A stretch of 64,000 nt of DNA, taken from an uncultured Alphaproteobacteria bacterium (GTDB lineage Bacteria > Pseudomonadota > Alphaproteobacteria > Rs-D84). The notes beneath the pieces are model-generated. The model worked only from the letters and a program-made list of their open reading frames with translations. It had not been told where the DNA came from and did not search any database. The position numbers were made by a program, and so were the translations under genes. This document shows positions 50,975 through 64,000 of this stretch, piece after piece; the first letter of the stretch is position 1, and every line of letters starts with the position of its first letter. Where the stretch lies: NCBI GenBank assembly GCA_944389515.1, contig CALXMQ010000002.1:71094-135093 (forward strand). The letters are read 5' to 3'.

Positions 50975-51170
50975 TGTTTTGTTGAAAATTGTTTTTGACT
51001 TTTTATCAACAAGTTTTCAACAATTTTTTGCCGGATTTTAGGGAGTTTTTACACATTTGTTGAAAAATATAGGTGTTTAATAAACAGTTGAAAAATATAT
51101 ATGTTTTTAACAATTTTAACAATTTTTTGAAAACGCTTTTTATACTTGTTGAAAACTGTTGAAATTGTTA
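50975..51170 (+). promoter_or_regulatory. array of at least 6 direct TTGTTGAAAA(A)T repeats plus one inverted copy upstream of virB3
   Basis: Direct copies at 50979, 51056, 51085, 51147 and 51157. Inverted copy ttttcaacaa at 51015. Degenerate ttttaacaatttt copies at 51107-51126. Confidence 0.5.
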
Positions 51171-51502
51171 TAATTCAAGCAAGCAAGGGGGGATTGTATC
51201 CAAAAATGCGACAACAAGTGTTAAAAGCATTGGCAAATCCAGCGCGTATTTTTTACGTGCCTTATTCACTGGCGGTGATAAATTTTGCAGTGCAATTTAT
51301 TGTTTTTATTGTTGTTTTTATAATTGGATTGATTATTTACGGGGCAGATTCTTGGATAAATCCTTTGTATTTTTTAATATCTGTGATTGTGGTTCATATG
51401 ATATTGGCGTTTTTTGCAAAACGTGAACCACAACTGGGACAGATTATATCGGCAAAAATACAACTGATTAAAAAAAAGATACCGGGGCGATTGGCGGCAT
51501 AA
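51146..51502 (+). CDS. virB3: type IV secretion system protein VirB3
   Basis: LKALANPARIFYVPYSLAVINF matches the VirB3 core (FKGLTRPAMIxGVPYxYFxLNF), followed by a TM helix. True start may be the internal ATG at 51206. Confidence 0.7.
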   Translation: MLKTVEIVIIQASKGGLYPKMRQQVLKALANPARIFYVPYSLAVINFAVQFIVFIVVFIIGLIIYGADSWINPLYFLISVIVVHMILAFFAKREPQLGQIISAKIQLIKKKIPGRLAA

Positions 51503-51505
51503 AAT

Positions 51506-53920
51506 ATGAACGGATTTTTTGAACATTTTGCAGGCGGTGAATTTCCAATTACCACAATAATCTTGGTAATGATTGTTGTGTTTGTGTTTATTGTTTTAAT
51601 GATGTATATCCCAGCATTGACACGTAAAATATTTCCTAAATTTGGGTATGTGCGGTATTCGCAATATTTGCCGTTCAAAAATGTTTATACAGATAATTCA
51701 ATAACTTTGACAGATGGGTCGATTATTCGCGTGTATCGCGTGGCAGGTGTTCAAACCAGTATGCAAGATGATGATGCACGTGCTAAATTTTTAGATTTAC
51801 GTTCGCAATTATTTAATCAAATACGTGACCCAAATGTGGTTATCAGATTTTATACTGTGCGTGATGCGGTTGGTGAAAATACAAATTACGAATTTGACCA
51901 GCCCGTATTACAAAAAATTTATAATAAATGGAAATCTCAGGGATTACGTATTTTTACAAATAATTATTATATTGTGTTATCTGTTGGTGGGGCAAATGCA
52001 CGTGAAAAATTAAATCAATATGGTAATTATATTGAATCTATATTGGCGGCATACAGACCCAGTGTATTGCGTAATGATGCGTCTGATAATATGGCAAAAT
52101 TCTTTGGACGTATATTGTCACCAATTACCAAGCCGGCACCAATGGTTTGCGACCAAAATATCAGTGATGTTACAACAGTTGATGATGTTGAATTTATGGA
52201 TAATGGAATAATTCGGTATACTGGTGATGGACGTCAATCATTTGCAGCAGCAATTTCGTTCAAAATGTCACCTGATTATTTAGACGAAGATTTCTTTAAT
52301 GCGATATACACAATTCAAACAGAAATGATTTGCATGAATGCGTTTAGAATAATGGGCGCAGCAGATATTGAATCTGTGTTACGGCAACGTCGTGCAACAG
52401 CCGAAGAAAAAGAAACGTCTGCAACAGAACAAATCAGTGCGGCGGAATCTGCGATGGATGAAAATATTTCTGGAAATCAGAATCTGGTAAATTATTATCC
52501 GTTGTTTTTAATATTTGGTGCCAGTGTTCAAGAATTAGAACAATATATTGATGAATTTAACAAGATTGCTGCATCGTATGGGGTATCACCGATTGTGGAA
52601 TCTTTTGCATCACGTGTGTCTTGGTTTGCACAAATTCCTGGGTTTGATGTTTTTCCGCGCAGTTTCAAAATGTTGTCACGTACTGCGGCGGTCAGTATCC
52701 CGATGTCCAGCACACCACGTGGTGTTGCAAATTGTGATTGGGGCCCGGGGCCATTGGTTATTTTCCCAACTGCCCAGGGTACACCATATCAATTTCAATT
52801 TCATGTATCTGACAAACCAGCCGCAGTGGCACATACTTTGACCATCGGGCCAACAGGCGGTGGTAAAACGACTTTGTTCAGTTTCTTGATTGCGCAATCT
52901 TTGCGACATAAGAAATTAAAAGCGTTTTTCTTTGATAGAAACAAGGGTGCAGAAATTTTCACTTTGTCAGTTGGTGGCAAATATGTGACGATGGTTGGTA
53001 AAGACAAAGATAAAAAAGCGGATTCTTTTCAAACACACTTAAATCCATTAAAAATGTCTGATACCCCAGATAATCGCGCATTTTTGCGGCGGTGGTTTGC
53101 AATGATTACTGGGAACAGTGATGCAAATTCGGCTGATGAAATTGCACGTGCGGTATCGGTAAATTTTGATTATTTACAACAAAATGACAGATTATTAAAA
53201 AATTTATGGGAAAGTTGTTTTTCATCTGTGGGTAATATGAGGCCGGCATTGAAAAAGTGGGTCGACCCGTTACAATATGGTGATATATTTAATGAAGATT
53301 CTGATACGTTGGATTTGAATTCACGTCTGACCACATTTGATTTTACAGATATATTACAAGATGAAACATTGGCGCCGGCTGTGATATCGTATATTTTACA
53401 CAGAATAAATAATGATACTGTGTCGGGAGGTAATCCATCGTTGATTATGATTGATGAAACAGCGCCAATGCTGGAAAATAAAATGTTCCGTGACAGTTTT
53501 ATAACGGGATTGCAAGAAGGGCGTAAAAATCGCCAGGCGTATATGGTTGCATTTCAACGGGCAAATGTTTTGGATAAATTGGGGATTGGTGATGTTGTTC
53601 GTGGCCAGGCGCAAACAGTGCTGTTTTTCCGTAATCCGGCGGCCGATGTGTCGGATTATCAATATTGGAATTTGAATCCATTGGAAATGGCATTTATTCA
53701 GGGCAAGGCATATCCGAATCTGAAACGCGCAGTTTTGTTATCACGGCCGGTTACTGGTGAATCTGTGATTTTGAATACTGAATTGGGTGGTTTGGGTAAT
53801 TTGTTGCGATTGTTTGAATCTGGGCGTTCGTCGGTATTATTGGCCGAAGAATTATATGCACAATATGGAAATAACTTTGTCGCAGAATATTTGAAAAAGC
53901 AAGGGGCAGGCGATTTATAA
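51506..53920 (+). CDS. virB4: type IV secretion system ATPase VirB4
   Basis: 804 aa. N-terminal TM, Walker A GPTGGGKTT, and the CagE/TrbE/VirB4 layout. Confidence 0.9.
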   Translation: MNGFFEHFAGGEFPITTIILVMIVVFVFIVLMMYIPALTRKIFPKFGYVRYSQYLPFKNVYTDNSITLTDGSIIRVYRVAGVQTSMQDDDARAKFLDLRSQLFNQIRDPNVVIRFYTVRDAVGENTNYEFDQPVLQKIYNKWKSQGLRIFTNNYYIVLSVGGANAREKLNQYGNYIESILAAYRPSVLRNDASDNMAKFFGRILSPITKPAPMVCDQNISDVTTVDDVEFMDNGIIRYTGDGRQSFAAAISFKMSPDYLDEDFFNAIYTIQTEMICMNAFRIMGAADIESVLRQRRATAEEKETSATEQISAAESAMDENISGNQNLVNYYPLFLIFGASVQELEQYIDEFNKIAASYGVSPIVESFASRVSWFAQIPGFDVFPRSFKMLSRTAAVSIPMSSTPRGVANCDWGPGPLVIFPTAQGTPYQFQFHVSDKPAAVAHTLTIGPTGGGKTTLFSFLIAQSLRHKKLKAFFFDRNKGAEIFTLSVGGKYVTMVGKDKDKKADSFQTHLNPLKMSDTPDNRAFLRRWFAMITGNSDANSADEIARAVSVNFDYLQQNDRLLKNLWESCFSSVGNMRPALKKWVDPLQYGDIFNEDSDTLDLNSRLTTFDFTDILQDETLAPAVISYILHRINNDTVSGGNPSLIMIDETAPMLENKMFRDSFITGLQEGRKNRQAYMVAFQRANVLDKLGIGDVVRGQAQTVLFFRNPAADVSDYQYWNLNPLEMAFIQGKAYPNLKRAVLLSRPVTGESVILNTELGGLGNLLRLFESGRSSVLLAEELYAQYGNNFVAEYLKKQGAGDL

Positions 53921-53923
53921 AAT

Positions 53924-54544
53924 ATGAAATTTGTAAAAATTTTATGTTTTATTACTTGTTTTATTCCGTGTATTGCACGGGCCAATGATGATTGTTTGCC
54001 ATATAAATTAAAACCAAGTGTTATGTTGGATACACCAACGTGGTCAAAAGAAGTTGTGCAACCGTTGCGTCATATGGATTTGTTACATGGTAATGTTGTT
54101 GCAACAATGGTTGATAATTATGACATTGTGGCTGATATTACAAATATCGAAGATGGATATTGTGTTGCATTAAAATCTGTGTATGCGACGGTTGGGTATA
54201 CTGATTTTTTGGTTCAAATTGATATTCGTCATGTGCCAGAATCATGCACATACAACGCGATTTTATCACACGAAGACGAACATATTCGTGCTTATTTGTC
54301 TGTGATTGATGATTATAAAAAAGAATTAAAAGATTCTGTATATTCGGCGGCGGATTCTGTTACACCAATTTTTGTACGAAATGCCGCGGATATTGATGCG
54401 GCGATTTCTGAATTAAATGATGAATTACAGGCGCATCCAGATTTAATTTTAGTTAAACAAAAAATCAAAGCAGCCGAAGAAATCCGTAACAAGCGTGTTG
54501 ACCAACATGACACTGGTCAATCGTTGCAGAAATGTTTTGAATAA
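53924..54544 (+). CDS. secreted hypothetical protein with HEDEH motif (DUF922-like Zn-peptidase?)
   Basis: Signal peptide MKFVKILCFITCFIPCIARA. Contains ILSHEDEHIRAY. Translationally coupled to the virB4 stop. Confidence 0.35.
   Translation: MKFVKILCFITCFIPCIARANDDCLPYKLKPSVMLDTPTWSKEVVQPLRHMDLLHGNVVATMVDNYDIVADITNIEDGYCVALKSVYATVGYTDFLVQIDIRHVPESCTYNAILSHEDEHIRAYLSVIDDYKKELKDSVYSAADSVTPIFVRNAADIDAAISELNDELQAHPDLILVKQKIKAAEEIRNKRVDQHDTGQSLQKCFE

Positions 54545-56774: not shown

Positions 56775-56800
<26 letters not shown>
56563..56800. repeat. diverged direct repeat (56563-56625 and 56736-56800): terminator hairpin plus tttt(a/c)(a/t)tttaacttggttg plus the tRNA-fMet 3' end or a degraded copy of it
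   Basis: Copy A: ..ggggtgtttttatttttaacttggttgttggcggtggattt. Copy B: ..gggtgtatttttcattttaacttggttgcggagtgtggattt. The spacer carries ctgtggttcaaaacc, an inverted T-arm-like fragment. Confidence 0.6.
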
Positions 56801-56851
<51 letters not shown>

Positions 56852-59665: not shown

Positions 59666-60106
59666 ATGAAAAAAGCATTTGCATTTTGTTCTTTGTTTTT
59701 GGCGTTGTGTGCATGTGGCGGTATGATTAAAAACGAAAATGGCAGCCAATATTTAACACAACTGGACGCGGAACCGATTGGATGCACATTTTTGTATAAA
59801 ATTGAATCAGAAGTATCGGTTTATGATGCTGATGATGCACGTGTGTATTTGGAAAATAGAATTGTTGACCAGGCGCGTCCTGGGAACGCATATTGGATAA
59901 CCAGTCAACGTACACGCCCGAACGAGTGGGTAATATTTGGCCCGGAACGTGCGTTTGTATTGGTCGCAAATGTTTATGATTGTCCACATCCAAACAGTGT
60001 GCGTACCGCCAAAGATGGGGGAACCAGTATTACGGCGACACCTGTGTTGGTTGAACATCAAATAAATTGCAATGACACCATGTATGGTGGTATGGGTGGT
60101 TGTTGA
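59666..60106 (+). CDS. lipoprotein of unknown function
   Basis: Lipobox LALCAC. 146 aa. Confidence 0.5.
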   Translation: MKKAFAFCSLFLALCACGGMIKNENGSQYLTQLDAEPIGCTFLYKIESEVSVYDADDARVYLENRIVDQARPGNAYWITSQRTRPNEWVIFGPERAFVLVANVYDCPHPNSVRTAKDGGTSITATPVLVEHQINCNDTMYGGMGGC

Positions 60107-60124
60107 TATAGATAATAAAATATA

Positions 60125-60163
60125 ATCAACACCCGTTGTGTGAAAACAACGGGTGTTGTTTTT
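60125..60163 (+). terminator. intrinsic terminator
   Basis: caacacccgttgtgtgaaaacaacgggtgttg followed by TTTTT. Confidence 0.6.
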
Positions 60164-60230
60164 GTATTCTGTGTTTGCCAAAGCCGGTTTTTTTATGTTA
60201 TAATTACTTGAAATATATCAGAGAGAGAAA

Positions 60231-61493
60231 TTGTCAGGCCAAGTTATAACTGTTGACAGGAAAAAATATGCCGTTGGATTGTTTTGGCAACCCACGGGGG
60301 CTGGGTATGTTGCGCGTACGTATGCACGTGCGTTGGCGCGCAGTATTGATAAAAAACTAAATTTATATACTGAATATCGCGCGATGGTGGGATTGGGGTC
60401 TAAACGTGCCGGTCATCGTAGTGGTATGGACAGTGCCGCCGCCGCCATTGCGGATGCATTGGGGGAATTTACATCATTTTTAGCGGTTTTTGCGCTGGAT
60501 AAATCTTTTTATTTGGTTGCGGTTCGTAATGGCGTGATTTTAGAAGATAAGTTGTTTGAACGTGAAGAAGATGCACGTGCAGAATATTTTAAGTTATCTG
60601 AAATCCCAGATTGGGGCGCGTTGTTTGCACCGGGGGCGTGGGGGATGCCACGTGCGGTTGAACGTAATTTACCTGATTTAATCATGCGTACGGCACGTGC
60701 CACTTTGCGACCAATCAGTCGTGCGCGTGCGGTTGTTGTATCAATTATTTTGGTATTGATGTTTGTGGGTGTGTTTTTGTGGTTCTTTCGTGAACCATTG
60801 CGTCAAATGTTTGCACCGCAACCACAGATATCAAATGTTTCGCCTGAAATCGTTGCAGAATATGAACGTCAGGTCGAAGAAAAAAATAAAGAATTGGACG
60901 AACAATTTCAAATTGAACGTGCACCACAGCCGGAACCAATTATATTGCCGTATGAATTTTTACCAAATCCAACAATACGTGCAGAAACATGTTTCCAGGC
61001 AATCGCGTTTTTAATGCAACCTATTACTGGGTGGAGTCAGGTTTCCGCGGAATGTGGTGAAACACATGCCAGTGTTGTATTTAATCGTGATTTTGGCACA
61101 TTAAATGATTTTTATGCGACGGCCACAGAATTGATGCCTGGGTCGTTTGTACAACAAGAATCTGATGATACGTTGTATGTGCGTGCAACATTGCCGGCAG
61201 TGCCGACGTATGCATCATTGGATGAACGTGATGTTGAAACAGTATTACGCGCGGTGTTGAGTGCATTTCAATACGGTGGGATGTCTGTGGATGCGCAAAT
61301 GGTGACAGATACTTTGACCAATGGGGTTGATACAGTAAATCTGGATATAGTAGAAGTTGCGGCAGAATCAAAATTAAATCCAATGCAATTTATGAAGATT
61401 TTTGAAGAATTTGGCGGGGTGTATATGACGCGCTGTGCGTGGGATGCATCAACACGGAACTGGAACTATGAGGTGATAATCTATGCGAAATAA
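60231..61493 (+). CDS. bitopic inner-membrane type IVb pilus assembly protein (BfpC / R64 PilO-like), TTG start
   Basis: 420 aa. About 165 aa cytoplasmic, a single TM (VVVSIILVLMFVGVFLWFF), then about 235 aa periplasmic. Position and topology match bfpC/pilO upstream of the ATPase. Confidence 0.45.
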   Translation: MSGQVITVDRKKYAVGLFWQPTGAGYVARTYARALARSIDKKLNLYTEYRAMVGLGSKRAGHRSGMDSAAAAIADALGEFTSFLAVFALDKSFYLVAVRNGVILEDKLFEREEDARAEYFKLSEIPDWGALFAPGAWGMPRAVERNLPDLIMRTARATLRPISRARAVVVSIILVLMFVGVFLWFFREPLRQMFAPQPQISNVSPEIVAEYERQVEEKNKELDEQFQIERAPQPEPIILPYEFLPNPTIRAETCFQAIAFLMQPITGWSQVSAECGETHASVVFNRDFGTLNDFYATATELMPGSFVQQESDDTLYVRATLPAVPTYASLDERDVETVLRAVLSAFQYGGMSVDAQMVTDTLTNGVDTVNLDIVEVAAESKLNPMQFMKIFEEFGGVYMTRCAWDASTRNWNYEVIIYAK

Positions 61494-62187
61494 AATTATG
61501 TTTTTGTCAGTGTTTATGTTTTCAATGCTGATGTGCGCACCGGCTGAATTGATGGCGGCGACATCTGGGGGGTCGGCGTCCGAGGCAGCAGTTGCCCAAG
61601 ATATCGCCGCAGAAATGGAAGCGGTTTCCGCAGATGCGGTGGCAGCATATGATGCGTCTGGGTCTGTGTTTCAGCAAATTACTGATTTAGAACAAGAAAA
61701 GGTTTTAATGGAACTGGAAAAAGAACGCGCCCAGTTGGATTTAGAATTAGACAGATTGGCGGCTGAAAAAATCAAATTACATATGGAAATTGATGAATTG
61801 TCTGGACGTGCAGAACAACAGCAACAAGAACTGGAAAATGCCCAGGCAAAGTTAGAAGCCGAAGCCGCAAAATTAGAACGTGAAAAAGAAGCCTTGGAAG
61901 CCCAAACAGAAGAATTGGCAACAAAAAAGACGACAAGTGCAACAACAAATAAATCTGATGAAGGTAAGTCGTTTGATTTTGGTGATCAATACAGATTGGT
62001 AAATGTTATTGGGGCTGGTGCCCAATTACAGGCGACAATCGAAAATTTAGCAACAGGGCAAAATAGAACAATCAGTGTTGGCAAGGTTGTTGATGGTTAT
62101 ACAGTTACATCAATATCTTTGGACGAAGGTGTTGTATTTTCTGATGGTAATGATACCCAGACGTTAAATATTACAAAATCAAAATAA
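61483..62187 (+). CDS. periplasmic coiled-coil protein (BfpU/PilP-like by position)
   Basis: Signal peptide. About 90 aa of E/A/L/K heptad coiled coil. C-terminal beta-rich domain. Confidence 0.35.
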   Translation: MRNKIMFLSVFMFSMLMCAPAELMAATSGGSASEAAVAQDIAAEMEAVSADAVAAYDASGSVFQQITDLEQEKVLMELEKERAQLDLELDRLAAEKIKLHMEIDELSGRAEQQQQELENAQAKLEAEAAKLEREKEALEAQTEELATKKTTSATTNKSDEGKSFDFGDQYRLVNVIGAGAQLQATIENLATGQNRTISVGKVVDGYTVTSISLDEGVVFSDGNDTQTLNITKSK

Positions 62188-62198
62188 AGCGGCGGATT

Positions 62199-63836
62199 AT
62201 GAACGAAGCGGAAAACAATATCATAAACAATATACCGGTGGCGTCACGGCCGTCAATTCCAGCAGGATTGGAAACGGCTGATAACAAGGATATTGTAGAT
62301 TATCTGTTTTCAAATGGAAACAGGTTGTTGACCGCAACAGGTGCAGAACAAGAATTACCAAAAGATACCCAGGGTTTAATTGCGTATTTTTCAGGTGGTG
62401 AAATAATTGTTTCGCGTACACATCGTTATGATGGACGTGTGTTGGCTTTTTTGGATTTGTTAAAGAAACGGGCGCTGCCGATGCGTATACCGTTTTATTC
62501 TGATTTGGGTTTGGTTTCCAGTATATACAAGGCATACGAAGGGCGTTTGGGTGGGGTCGCACGTTCGCGTCAGGATTATGACAACCAAATGCAAAAAGAC
62601 TTTGTCGATATTATTGCCAAGGCCGCGGCGCAAAAGGTTTCTGATATTCATATCGAAGTTGCGGACCAAACAACAATTTATTTCCGTATCGATGGCAGTA
62701 TGCAGCCTGTGTTGGAATATAATTCAGGGTGGGGGGAATCTTTTGTTCGTGCGGCGTTTGCATCGTCTGATATGTCAAATGCAAACTATGCGCAAAATGA
62801 ATACCAGGCGGCACAAAAAGATGGGCGTACACCATTACGTGGCACCAAAGATTTATATTTGCCACGTGGTATATTGAGTATTCGTATGCAATTTAATCCA
62901 ATCGCATTTGGCAGTCGTTATGTCGTTATGCGATTGTTATATGATAATCCATCCGAAGGTATAAAAACAGAACAAGAATTTGGTGAATATGAACAAAAAT
63001 TATTGATGCGGTTGCGGTCTTTTCCAACAGGTTTGGTAATTGTTGCCGGTCCCACCAGTTCTGGGAAATCAACCACGTTGGTGCGTAATATGTCTTTGAT
63101 GTTAAAAGAACATCATTATGAAATAAACTTGATAACCGTGGAAGATCCGGTTGAACAAAAAATATTTGGCGCGCATCAAATGCCGGTGGTAAATACAACA
63201 AACGAAGAACAACGTGAAGAAAAGTATACCGAAGCGTTGGCCGCCGCGTTGCGCAGTGACCCTGATACGTTGATGGTGGGGGAAATTCGTACGTTGGCCG
63301 CCGCCCAGTTGACTGTGCGTGGGGCGTTGTCTGGGCATAATGTGTGGACAACATTGCATGCAAATTCTGCAATGTCTGCATTGACGCGATTGCTGGATTT
63401 GGGAATAGAAGCGTTTAAGTTAAAAGAAGAAACATTGATGCGTGGATTGATATCTATGCGTTTGTTCAAAAAGTTATGCCCACATTGTCGTGAACGTTTG
63501 ATTGATCATCCAGAGGCACCTGAATACGGGCGTGTTATGGATGCGTTTGGTGAATTGGGATTACGCCAGGTATATATTCGTGGCGCCGGATGTGAAGAGT
63601 GCAAAGGTACAGGAACGTTGGGGCGTATCAAGGCCGGGGAAATTATTATTACTAACAGTGAATTTTTACGTATGGCGTTGGCCGGAAATACAGATGGGGC
63701 GTATAAGTATTGGTTAGAAGAAATGGATGGACGTACGCTGAAAGAGGCCGCCACAGCATTGATGTTACAGGGTATTATTGGTGTTGATGAACTGGAACGT
63801 TGGGTTGGGCTGTTGGATAGACCGGGGGTATATTGA
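62199..63836 (+). CDS. GspE/PilB-family secretion ATPase (type IVb pilus assembly ATPase, BfpD / R64 PilQ-like)
   Basis: Walker A AGPTSSGKSTT. Asp and His boxes. C-terminal tetracysteine CPHC...CEEC, typical of GspE/PilB/BfpD. Confidence 0.85.
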   Translation: MNEAENNIINNIPVASRPSIPAGLETADNKDIVDYLFSNGNRLLTATGAEQELPKDTQGLIAYFSGGEIIVSRTHRYDGRVLAFLDLLKKRALPMRIPFYSDLGLVSSIYKAYEGRLGGVARSRQDYDNQMQKDFVDIIAKAAAQKVSDIHIEVADQTTIYFRIDGSMQPVLEYNSGWGESFVRAAFASSDMSNANYAQNEYQAAQKDGRTPLRGTKDLYLPRGILSIRMQFNPIAFGSRYVVMRLLYDNPSEGIKTEQEFGEYEQKLLMRLRSFPTGLVIVAGPTSSGKSTTLVRNMSLMLKEHHYEINLITVEDPVEQKIFGAHQMPVVNTTNEEQREEKYTEALAAALRSDPDTLMVGEIRTLAAAQLTVRGALSGHNVWTTLHANSAMSALTRLLDLGIEAFKLKEETLMRGLISMRLFKKLCPHCRERLIDHPEAPEYGRVMDAFGELGLRQVYIRGAGCEECKGTGTLGRIKAGEIIITNSEFLRMALAGNTDGAYKYWLEEMDGRTLKEAATALMLQGIIGVDELERWVGLLDRPGVY

Positions 63837-63837
63837 T

Positions 63838-64000
63838 ATGACAACAAAAATGGATTTATGGTATGCCCGGTTGGTTTTTCGGTTGAATACTGAAAAACGT
63901 ATGGCCACAGCGCGAAAGTTGGCATCACTGTTGCGTAATGATTTTACATTGATGGATGCGCTGGGGCGATTGGAATCAATAGAATCACATGGTGGAACCA
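63838..64000 (+). CDS. GspF/PilC-family polytopic platform protein (BfpE / PilR-like), 5' partial at window end
   Basis: The N-terminus ...TEKRMATARKLASLLRNDFTLMDAL fits the GspF N-domain motif (LATLLxAGLPLxxAL). Overlaps the ATPase stop (TGATATG). Confidence 0.5.
   Translation, partial: MTTKMDLWYARLVFRLNTEKRMATARKLASLLRNDFTLMDALGRLESIESHGGT

Follow-up and report, generated by a model that had tools for sequence, protein, structure and literature searches.

A conserved four-gene operon predicted to encode the inner-membrane core of a type IVb pilus in Candidatus Enterousia

At the 3' edge of a stretch of 64,000 nucleotides from an uncultured alphaproteobacterium (assembly GCA_944389515.1, contig CALXMQ010000002.1, positions 71,094 to 135,093, read on the forward strand; this whole stretch is called the window here), we found an operon of four genes whose products, in a species of Candidatus Enterousia, probably form the inner-membrane assembly sub-complex of a type IVb pilus. 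Judged by their sequences and predicted structures, the four proteins are members of the type IVb pilus family and not of the type II secretion system (T2SS), the type IVa pilus or the Tad system. What is known of type IVb pili comes mainly from enteric Gammaproteobacteria, where they serve colonisation and conjugation and are encoded on plasmids or islands; a genomic survey lists a few further lineages (PMC6668835). We regard the operon as a genuine new member of the family in an unexpected lineage with reduced genomes, marked by its fixed place in the chromosome, its dispersed organisation and its very strong conservation, and not as a new kind of machine.

The operon and its four proteins

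All four genes are located on the forward strand. A pilO2/bfpC-like gene (60231 to 61493, 420 amino acids, TTG start) is followed by a pilP-like gene (61483 to 62187, 234 amino acids), the gene for a BfpD-like type IVb extension ATPase (62199 to 63836, 545 amino acids) and a bfpE/pilR-like platform gene, of which the window holds the 5' end with 54 codons (63838 to 64000, the window end). The region beyond the window was read from identical public contigs (at most 400 kb), which were found via the exact ATPase protein. In one of these, L001, whose coordinates plus 52198 give window coordinates, the full platform gene (L001 11640 to 12713) encodes a T2SSF protein of 357 amino acids. The order of four consecutive genes named in a first-pass annotation of the window was thereby confirmed, as was its agreement with pilO-pilP-pilQ-pilR of plasmid R64.

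The gene junctions are tight, with an overlap of 11 nt between pilO2 and pilP, a gap of 11 nt between pilP and the ATPase gene and a gap of 1 nt between the ATPase and platform genes. Upstream, an intrinsic terminator-like hairpin (60127 to 60158, L001 7929 to 7960; 13-bp stem, 7 GC pairs, T-runs on both strands) separates the operon from the gene of a 146-amino-acid lipoprotein, which ends at 60106. A sigma-70-like promoter on the forward strand (60175 to 60204; TTGCCA, 18-nt spacer, TG-extended TATAAT), predicted by consensus match only, agreed with the consensus at 11 of 12 positions, the top score in the 6.2-kb region scanned, and the TTG start follows 27 nt further on. A second terminator-like hairpin stands 3' of the platform gene (L001 12737 to 12752). 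Based on the tight junctions, the promoter and the flanking terminators, the four genes therefore look like a single transcription unit, reading from the promoter through pilO2, pilP, ATPase and platform gene to the terminator. The operon directly follows DUF374, lpxK, lpxC and the lipoprotein gene, and the reported location beside lipid A genes was correct. The secretin, pilin and peptidase genes that had been predicted downstream did not appear there; instead, the hairpin, an opposite-strand open reading frame (ORF) of 189 amino acids (orf189), gyrB, two small ORFs, UDG, PagL and aspS follow the platform gene. A GC content of 50-60%, as stated earlier for this region, was not reproduced either: fractions of 0.39-0.48 were measured in 300-bp windows and 0.43 over 60-64 kb, with about 0.40 for the whole window.

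The ATPase carries all motor motifs, namely a Walker A motif (GPTSSGKST, residues 284-292), a Walker B/Asp box and a His box, together with a complete C-terminal tetracysteine (Cys4) motif (CPHC, residues 427-430, and CEEC, residues 465-468), whereas BfpD of enteropathogenic Escherichia coli (EPEC) lacks the complete motif. It matched T2SSE with 220 bits, in line with the GspE-family ATPase announced before. Clear preferences became visible within this family. The structure of BfpD (8dze) was matched with 269.7 bits (E 4.5e-79) over residues 38-530, GspE and PilF with 150-153 bits. The GspE model TIGR02533 gave 221 bits against a cutoff of 630, and the TadA-family model gave 41 bits only. Phylogenetic analysis was performed by neighbour-joining (328 columns, 500 bootstraps; TcpT was not among the sequences). 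The ATPase grouped with six type IVb extension ATPases and was split from K-12 GspE, HofB and four retraction ATPases in 100% of the bootstraps; it joined the Bosea/BfpD branch, not R64 PilQ, in 92%. We consequently place it in the clade of BfpD, PilQ and TcpT.

The platform protein matched Pfam T2SSF in two stretches (94 bits, cutoff 25.2), while the NCBIfam GspF model was missed by far (75 bits, cutoff 424). Over the full length it is 36% identical to the type IVb platform of Bosea, 33% to BfpE and 27% to R64 PilR, and is thus a polytopic GspF-family platform of the BfpE/PilR type, as had been proposed. The distinction from Tad/Flp systems made at the same time also held, as the Cys4 motif is present and the platform is a single protein with two T2SSF domains; Tad/Flp systems are marked by a CpaF/TadA-type ATPase that lacks Cys4, a platform split into TadB and TadC, and an Flp pilin. 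In a T2SS, a GspE-clade ATPase and gspG-K genes after gspF would be expected; here, the ATPase is separated from GspE and the platform gene is followed by orf189 and gyrB.

The 420-amino-acid protein passed the Pfam PAP_PilO cutoff (40.4 bits, cutoff 26.7), and its N-terminal domain matched the crystal structure of BfpC by sequence (E 4e-5). A hidden Markov model (HMM) built from six reference PilO2/BfpC proteins matched it and every ortholog at about 1e-36. A hydrophobic helix at about residues 164-186 leaves about 165 amino acids on the N-terminal and about 234 on the C-terminal side, very close to the bitopic layout described in the first-pass annotation. In the AlphaFold model (mean confidence score, pLDDT, of 72 overall and about 90 for residues 240-420), the transmembrane helix (residues 164-185) is followed by two ferredoxin-like periplasmic modules. 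It is a bitopic alignment protein of the inner membrane, and its cytoplasmic domain is actin-like.

For the 234-amino-acid protein, a match to the PilP family TIGR03021 was obtained with 33.5 bits, slightly below the cutoff of 34.65. The same model matched 54 of 55 orthologs with E <= 0.001, one of which carries the NCBI name PilP, and hhalign gave a probability of 91% for R64-type PilP. The claim of a secreted coiled-coil protein was borne out by a Sec signal peptide and an 88-residue helix (residues 62-149); a variable Ser/Thr linker and a C-terminal HR-type beta domain (residues 170-228) follow. The structural model likewise consists of a signal helix, the 88-residue helix, the linker and a six-strand C-terminal domain, which matches secretin-binding HR domains. 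The equation with BfpU had to be given up, as hhalign yielded a probability of 1% and similarity was not demonstrable; the Enterousia protein is also 70 amino acids longer than BfpU and carries the long coiled coil. A periplasmic PilP of the R64 type is hence encoded between PilO2 and the ATPase. Both the 420- and the 234-amino-acid protein fall into known pilus biogenesis families, and their folds are those of GspL/GspM and GspC. With the ATPase apart from GspE, neither of the two outcomes that the first-pass annotation had named as refuting it came about.

The 88-residue helix, about 13 nm long, is almost invariant in the 55 orthologs. The conserved coiled-coil stretch was mapped to window positions 61660-61830 (about residues 60-116), while the whole protein is 53-76% identical across species. 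Because of such high conservation, a fixed binding partner or an oligomer is suggested for the coiled coil.

Conservation in the genus and relatives outside it

A scan of species-representative genomes with the PilO2-like protein identified 80 loci with 57-83% identity. They originate from gut metagenome-assembled genomes (human, chicken, ruminant) labelled as Candidatus Enterousia, uncultured Alphaproteobacteria or Rickettsiales, and one of the records is a circular chromosome of 958,618 bp. For the genus, which belongs to the order Rs-D84, genomes below 1 Mb and the absence of the tricarboxylic acid cycle, respiration, flagella and standard nutrient transporters were described; these bacteria probably depend on a partner via unknown "intercellular connections" (PMC12306168). 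The endosymbiont background assumed earlier was not established, and the organism is better described as a gut alphaproteobacterium with a reduced genome.

The operon occupies one and the same position, between DUF374-lpxK-lpxC-lipoprotein on one side and orf189-gyrB on the other, in about 75 of the 80 species. In 3 species (loci L046, L047 and L057) the four genes have moved together, and the lipoprotein gene is not with them. Full-length copies were found for PilO2 in 80 of 80 species, for the ATPase in 75 (3 more are cut by contig ends) and for the platform in 74 of 74, and no copy contains an internal stop. Compared to the window proteins, the ATPase is 82-97% identical (median 89%, 75 species) and the platform 71-94%. 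Values of 85-98% for GyrB and 62-80% for LpxC were obtained across the species. With intact ORFs and an ATPase conserved to about the same degree as GyrB, the operon is therefore almost certainly not a decaying remnant; its comparison across the genus shows that it was acquired before the genus diversified and has since been kept under strong constraint. The operon is not an insertion out of place either, but a fixed, vertically inherited core operon found throughout the genus.

For comparison, six reference type IVb operons were employed (EPEC bfp, a bfp-like E. coli plasmid operon, R64 pil, Bosea, Methylovorus and a P. aeruginosa plasmid). All six possess a TcpQ/BfpG-like gene and a secretin gene directly upstream of PilO2, and a pilin gene and usually more genes downstream. 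In Enterousia, the 146-amino-acid lipoprotein gene and the terminator are found at the place of the secretin gene, and between lpxC and gyrB the four genes have no further pilus genes beside them (about 75 species). The EPEC Bfp system (bfpC-bfpU-bfpD-bfpE, plasmid pMAR2/EAF) is encoded by a plasmid operon of 14 genes, which also holds the adjacent pilin, BfpG, the secretin BfpB, the retraction ATPase BfpF, the peptidase BfpP, a transglycosylase and minor pilins, compared to four adjacent chromosomal genes in Enterousia. Thin pili of the R64/PAPI-1 type share the order of PilO2, PilP, ATPase and platform, and their second protein belongs to the same PilP family (TIGR03021); the R64 ATPase is 29-30% and the R64 platform 27% identical to the Enterousia counterparts. 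Unlike R64, however, the Enterousia locus contains none of PilL, PilM, PilN, PilS, PilT, PilU, PilV and the shufflon, and unlike systems of the R64/PAPI-1 type it is not part of a conjugative element. The T2SS (GspC, GspL/GspM, GspE, GspF) differs as well: GspE structures reached 150 bits compared to 270 for BfpD, and no gspG-K cluster is present here.

An exhaustive search of 1.84 billion representatives placed the nearest ATPases outside Enterousia at 53-54% and 44% identity, with all others at 39% or below. Operons of these sister clades were analyzed at L101 (GCA_051887615.1), at L106-L118 (metagenomes) and at L103 (GCA_964344345.1). They are the closest relatives found, with ATPase identities of 48-54% for the L101 clade and 43-44% for L103 and platform identities of 38-43%; their PilO2 proteins are only about 25% identical to that of Enterousia. 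L101 encodes a 386-amino-acid protein, TcpQ, a secretin, PAP_PilO, a PilP-like protein of 318 amino acids, ATPase and platform, with TrbC adjoining, and L103 shows a classical core followed by a pilin, PilM and a Shufflon_N adhesin. Throughout these sister-clade operons, TcpQ and the secretin stand immediately 5' of PilO2. PilP-like proteins of the L101 clade are also long (about 320 amino acids), and the Enterousia protein aligns weakly with them (27-31% over about 190 amino acids). The ATPases of this clade (L101 6894-7650, L106-L117) carry an extra N-terminal region of about 200 amino acids, repetitive and rich in Pro, Ala and Glu, e.g. PPVLPPEAEDDALP, which is absent from the Enterousia and the reference type IVb ATPases. 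In the simplest history, an ancestor of Enterousia took up a mobile type IVb operon, of which only the inner-membrane core stayed together.

Proposed function, components away from the operon and alternative explanations

The proposed mechanism is drawn by analogy with Bfp, R64 and the T2SS, from which we infer the interactions, the secretin, the peptidase and the pilin in this species, and the role of the pilus. A hexameric BfpD-like ATPase would dock on the actin-like cytoplasmic domain of PilO2 and on the polytopic platform, and ATP-driven platform movements would lift prepilin-derived subunits from the membrane into the growing fibre. The ferredoxin-like periplasmic domains of PilO2 would form an alignment cage together with the secreted PilP-like protein, the HR domain of which would bind the N0 domain of an outer-membrane secretin, while its invariant coiled coil of about 13 nm would span much of the periplasm. 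The substrate would most likely be a Bundlin/PilS-related pilin of 154 amino acids, encoded by a lone gene linked to uvrC. Because the lineage is without central metabolism and partner dependence has been proposed for it, the pilus would most likely attach the cell to a partner or host cell.

The candidate pilin was discovered at L047, where its gene lies about 5.4 kb downstream of the last operon gene on the same contig. The protein starts with MIQESG|RSMIEMLGVLAIMGVITVG and carries two C-terminal cysteines; the N-terminus MIQESG|RSMIEML has G at -1 and E at +5. The family comprises 628 homologs, typically of 154 amino acids. The pilin is a lone gene beside uvrC in L047, L089 and L090 (two or three species); in L089 and L090 it is found in the dnaA-dnaN neighbourhood, and a distance of about 9 kb to dnaA was seen in an Enterousia species other than that of the window. 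The type IVb operon of L103 encodes a Bundlin/PilS pilin to which the candidate is 30% identical over 121 amino acids (E 1e-13), and a type IVb pilin HMM matched the candidate at 8.6e-8. Both pilins have the unusual mature N-terminus G|R(S/T)MIEM in common, with leaders of 6 versus about 25 amino acids. Neither in the window nor within 10 kb of either side was a pilin gene found. Canonical and relaxed scans for the pilin N-terminus motif in the window and 88 loci returned the L047 pilin only, and tblastn with this pilin detected no copy close to the operon in the other loci.

Several observations weigh against an assembled type IVb pilus of this kind. Pilins with a class III signal classically have a long leader and a mature length of about 190 amino acids, and the candidate with its leader of 6 and mature length of 148 amino acids is unlike these textbook type IVb pilins. 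It stayed below the Pfam N_methyl threshold (13.8 bits, threshold 21.2), and it was seen in congeners but not shown for the species of the window. The structural model of the PilO2-like protein is poor, with low confidence, in residues 1-66. A search of 84 kb (the window plus 10 kb on each side) brought up no secretin, TcpQ, A24 peptidase, retraction ATPase or minor pilin, and neither did tblastn and HMM searches of about 1.7 Mb of Enterousia loci. The queries were built from the six reference operons (secretin, TcpQ, A24 peptidase, retraction ATPase, transglycosylase, minor pilins and PilL/M/V), and their sole matches were retraction ATPases cross-matching the extension ATPase. A metagenome scan with sister-clade secretins, for which an alignment of two sequences was used since an eight-secretin alignment was too divergent, returned 13 loci, all of them classical operons and none Enterousia-like. 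Finally, a genome survey reports type IV pili for another lineage and does not mention them for Rs-D84 (PMC12306168), and our literature search found no mention of pili in the Enterousia group.

Since peptidase, secretin and any retraction ATPase were not found near the operon, they would have to lie elsewhere in the genome. The prepilin peptidase is treated as a loner in the T4bP model of TXSScan (PMC6668835), and several of the reference operons also do without its gene. For the secretin, a location elsewhere is argued by analogy from the HR domain of the PilP-like protein, because T2SS and type IVa pili use this module to bind the N0 domains of their secretins. If such a pilus is made, the operon is a candidate for how these widespread gut bacteria of humans, poultry and ruminants hold a partner or host, and its conservation points to a cell-contact organelle that a partner-dependent lineage cannot afford to lose. 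The case also shows how, in a reduced genome, a machine that is classically encoded at a single locus can become dispersed.

A more radical version, which we hold with considerable reserve, starts from the same operon. The type IVb pilus of a mobile element would have been domesticated into an essential organelle for partner-cell contact or uptake, with the machine rewired and unlike classical Bfp and R64: secretin, TcpQ and retraction ATPase may have been lost or replaced, and the short-leader pilin and the invariant 13-nm coiled coil of PilP may belong to the same rewiring. The type IV pili of episymbiotic Patescibacteria would be the analogue.

It is unlikely that the four proteins serve instead a type IVb-derived secretion or periplasmic pseudopilus device, which would export one or a few proteins through the outer membrane in a T2SS-like manner or act without a secretin. 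The toxin-coregulated pilus (TCP) and the CFA/III pilus export TcpF and CofJ, respectively. Such a device would agree with the lack of a secretin near the operon and in any related locus searched, with the GspL/GspM and GspC folds of PilO2 and PilP, and with a candidate pilin that is short, has a short, pseudopilin-like leader and is named "type II secretion system protein" by some sources. However, the ATPase and PilO2 are clearly of the type IVb kind and not GspE/GspL, no gspG-K-like minor pseudopilins were found, the HR domain implies a secretin partner, and the pilin is homologous to a major pilin of the Bundlin/PilS type.

A competence pilus, with which DNA would be taken up as a source of nucleotides or for recombination, would suit a reduced genome with many pathways missing, and there is precedent in the type IV filaments that serve DNA uptake in several lineages (PMC6668835; PMC8513845). 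We nevertheless consider it quite improbable, as no comEA, comEC or dprA was seen near the operon and no retraction ATPase was found in the loci searched.

The closest reference type IVb operons are located on conjugative plasmids or beside TrbB/TrbC, and virB3 and virB4 (51146-53920) lie 6-9 kb upstream of the pil operon. Both observations would fit an accessory thin pilus of the R64/PAPI-1 type that stabilises mating pairs for a chromosomal VirB-type type IV secretion system. This assignment is very improbable, though, since the operon keeps its place between lpxC and gyrB across about 75 species and is not on a mobile element, and neither a PilV/shufflon adhesin nor a relaxase is found nearby. 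Moreover, ABC-F, lipocalin, tRNA-Met and lpx genes stand between the operon and virB4, and in strains L005 and L006 the virB block is not present within 10 kb upstream, its location in the other strains, while the pil operon is unchanged. Least credible of all is the idea that a mobile type IVb operon lost its secretin and pilin genes and left a non-functional remnant. In its favour, only the central four genes of a classical operon are left at the locus; against it stand the intact ORFs in every species with their GyrB-like ATPase conservation, the tight junctions, the retained promoter and terminators and a genome of less than 1 Mb, where useless DNA is not kept.

Neighbouring genes and variable sites

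The 146-amino-acid lipoprotein (59666 to 60106) has the lipobox LCAC and several cysteines, is without family match and is 65-94% identical across the genus, with its gene almost always located between lpxC and the pil operon. It was considered as a pilotin or another part of the system and rejected as an operon member on the grounds of the strong terminator in between and its absence from L046, L047 and L057. On the other side, orf189 (L001 12773-13342, minus strand, about 770 bases past the window end) matched neither Pfam nor NCBIfam families; in 64 Enterousia species it is 81-98% identical, and it always stands beside gyrB, even where the block is inverted. As it remains with gyrB upon inversion of the gyrB block, orf189 was likewise rejected as part of the pilus system.

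The gap after the platform gene is a variable site, which holds DNA-methylase-like genes or other cargo in other species. In 4 species, secreted proteins of 738-810 amino acids with 30-47 cysteines are encoded there on the minus strand (L023 14939-17152, L025 8592-10808, L013 14821-17250, L047 15541-17757). The L013 protein shows Ephrin-receptor-like and TNFR-like cysteine repeats and a Listeria-Bacteroides repeat. These proteins were considered as adhesins or substrates; occurring in only 4 of 80 species, they allow no link to the pilus to be claimed.

The remainder of the window is ordinary origin-proximal housekeeping DNA with parAB, gidAB, mutS, mreBCD, topA, dnaG and several tRNA synthetase genes; the origin-proximal genes mutS, parB, parA, gidB, a recF-like gene and gidA were assigned to positions 1-30000. 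A type IV secretion island at 51146-54544 consists of virB3 (51146-51502), virB4 (51506-53920) and an ORF of 206 amino acids without family match, and no other vir genes were found within about 20 kb of virB3-virB4. Lying among housekeeping genes, the island may be a second case of a scattered machine. About 3.4 kb upstream of the pil operon, a tRNA-Met (cat) gene is encoded on the minus strand (56775-56851). It marks the exact place at which two further strains of the window's species, L005 (1-4431) and L006 (1-4403), differ from the window: there, integrase, resolvase, EcoRI-methylase and DUF3631 genes replace the block of virB4, ABC-F and lipocalin. From this comparison, the tRNA-Met site looks like a strain-variable integration hot-spot, next to which the pil operon itself has stayed unchanged.

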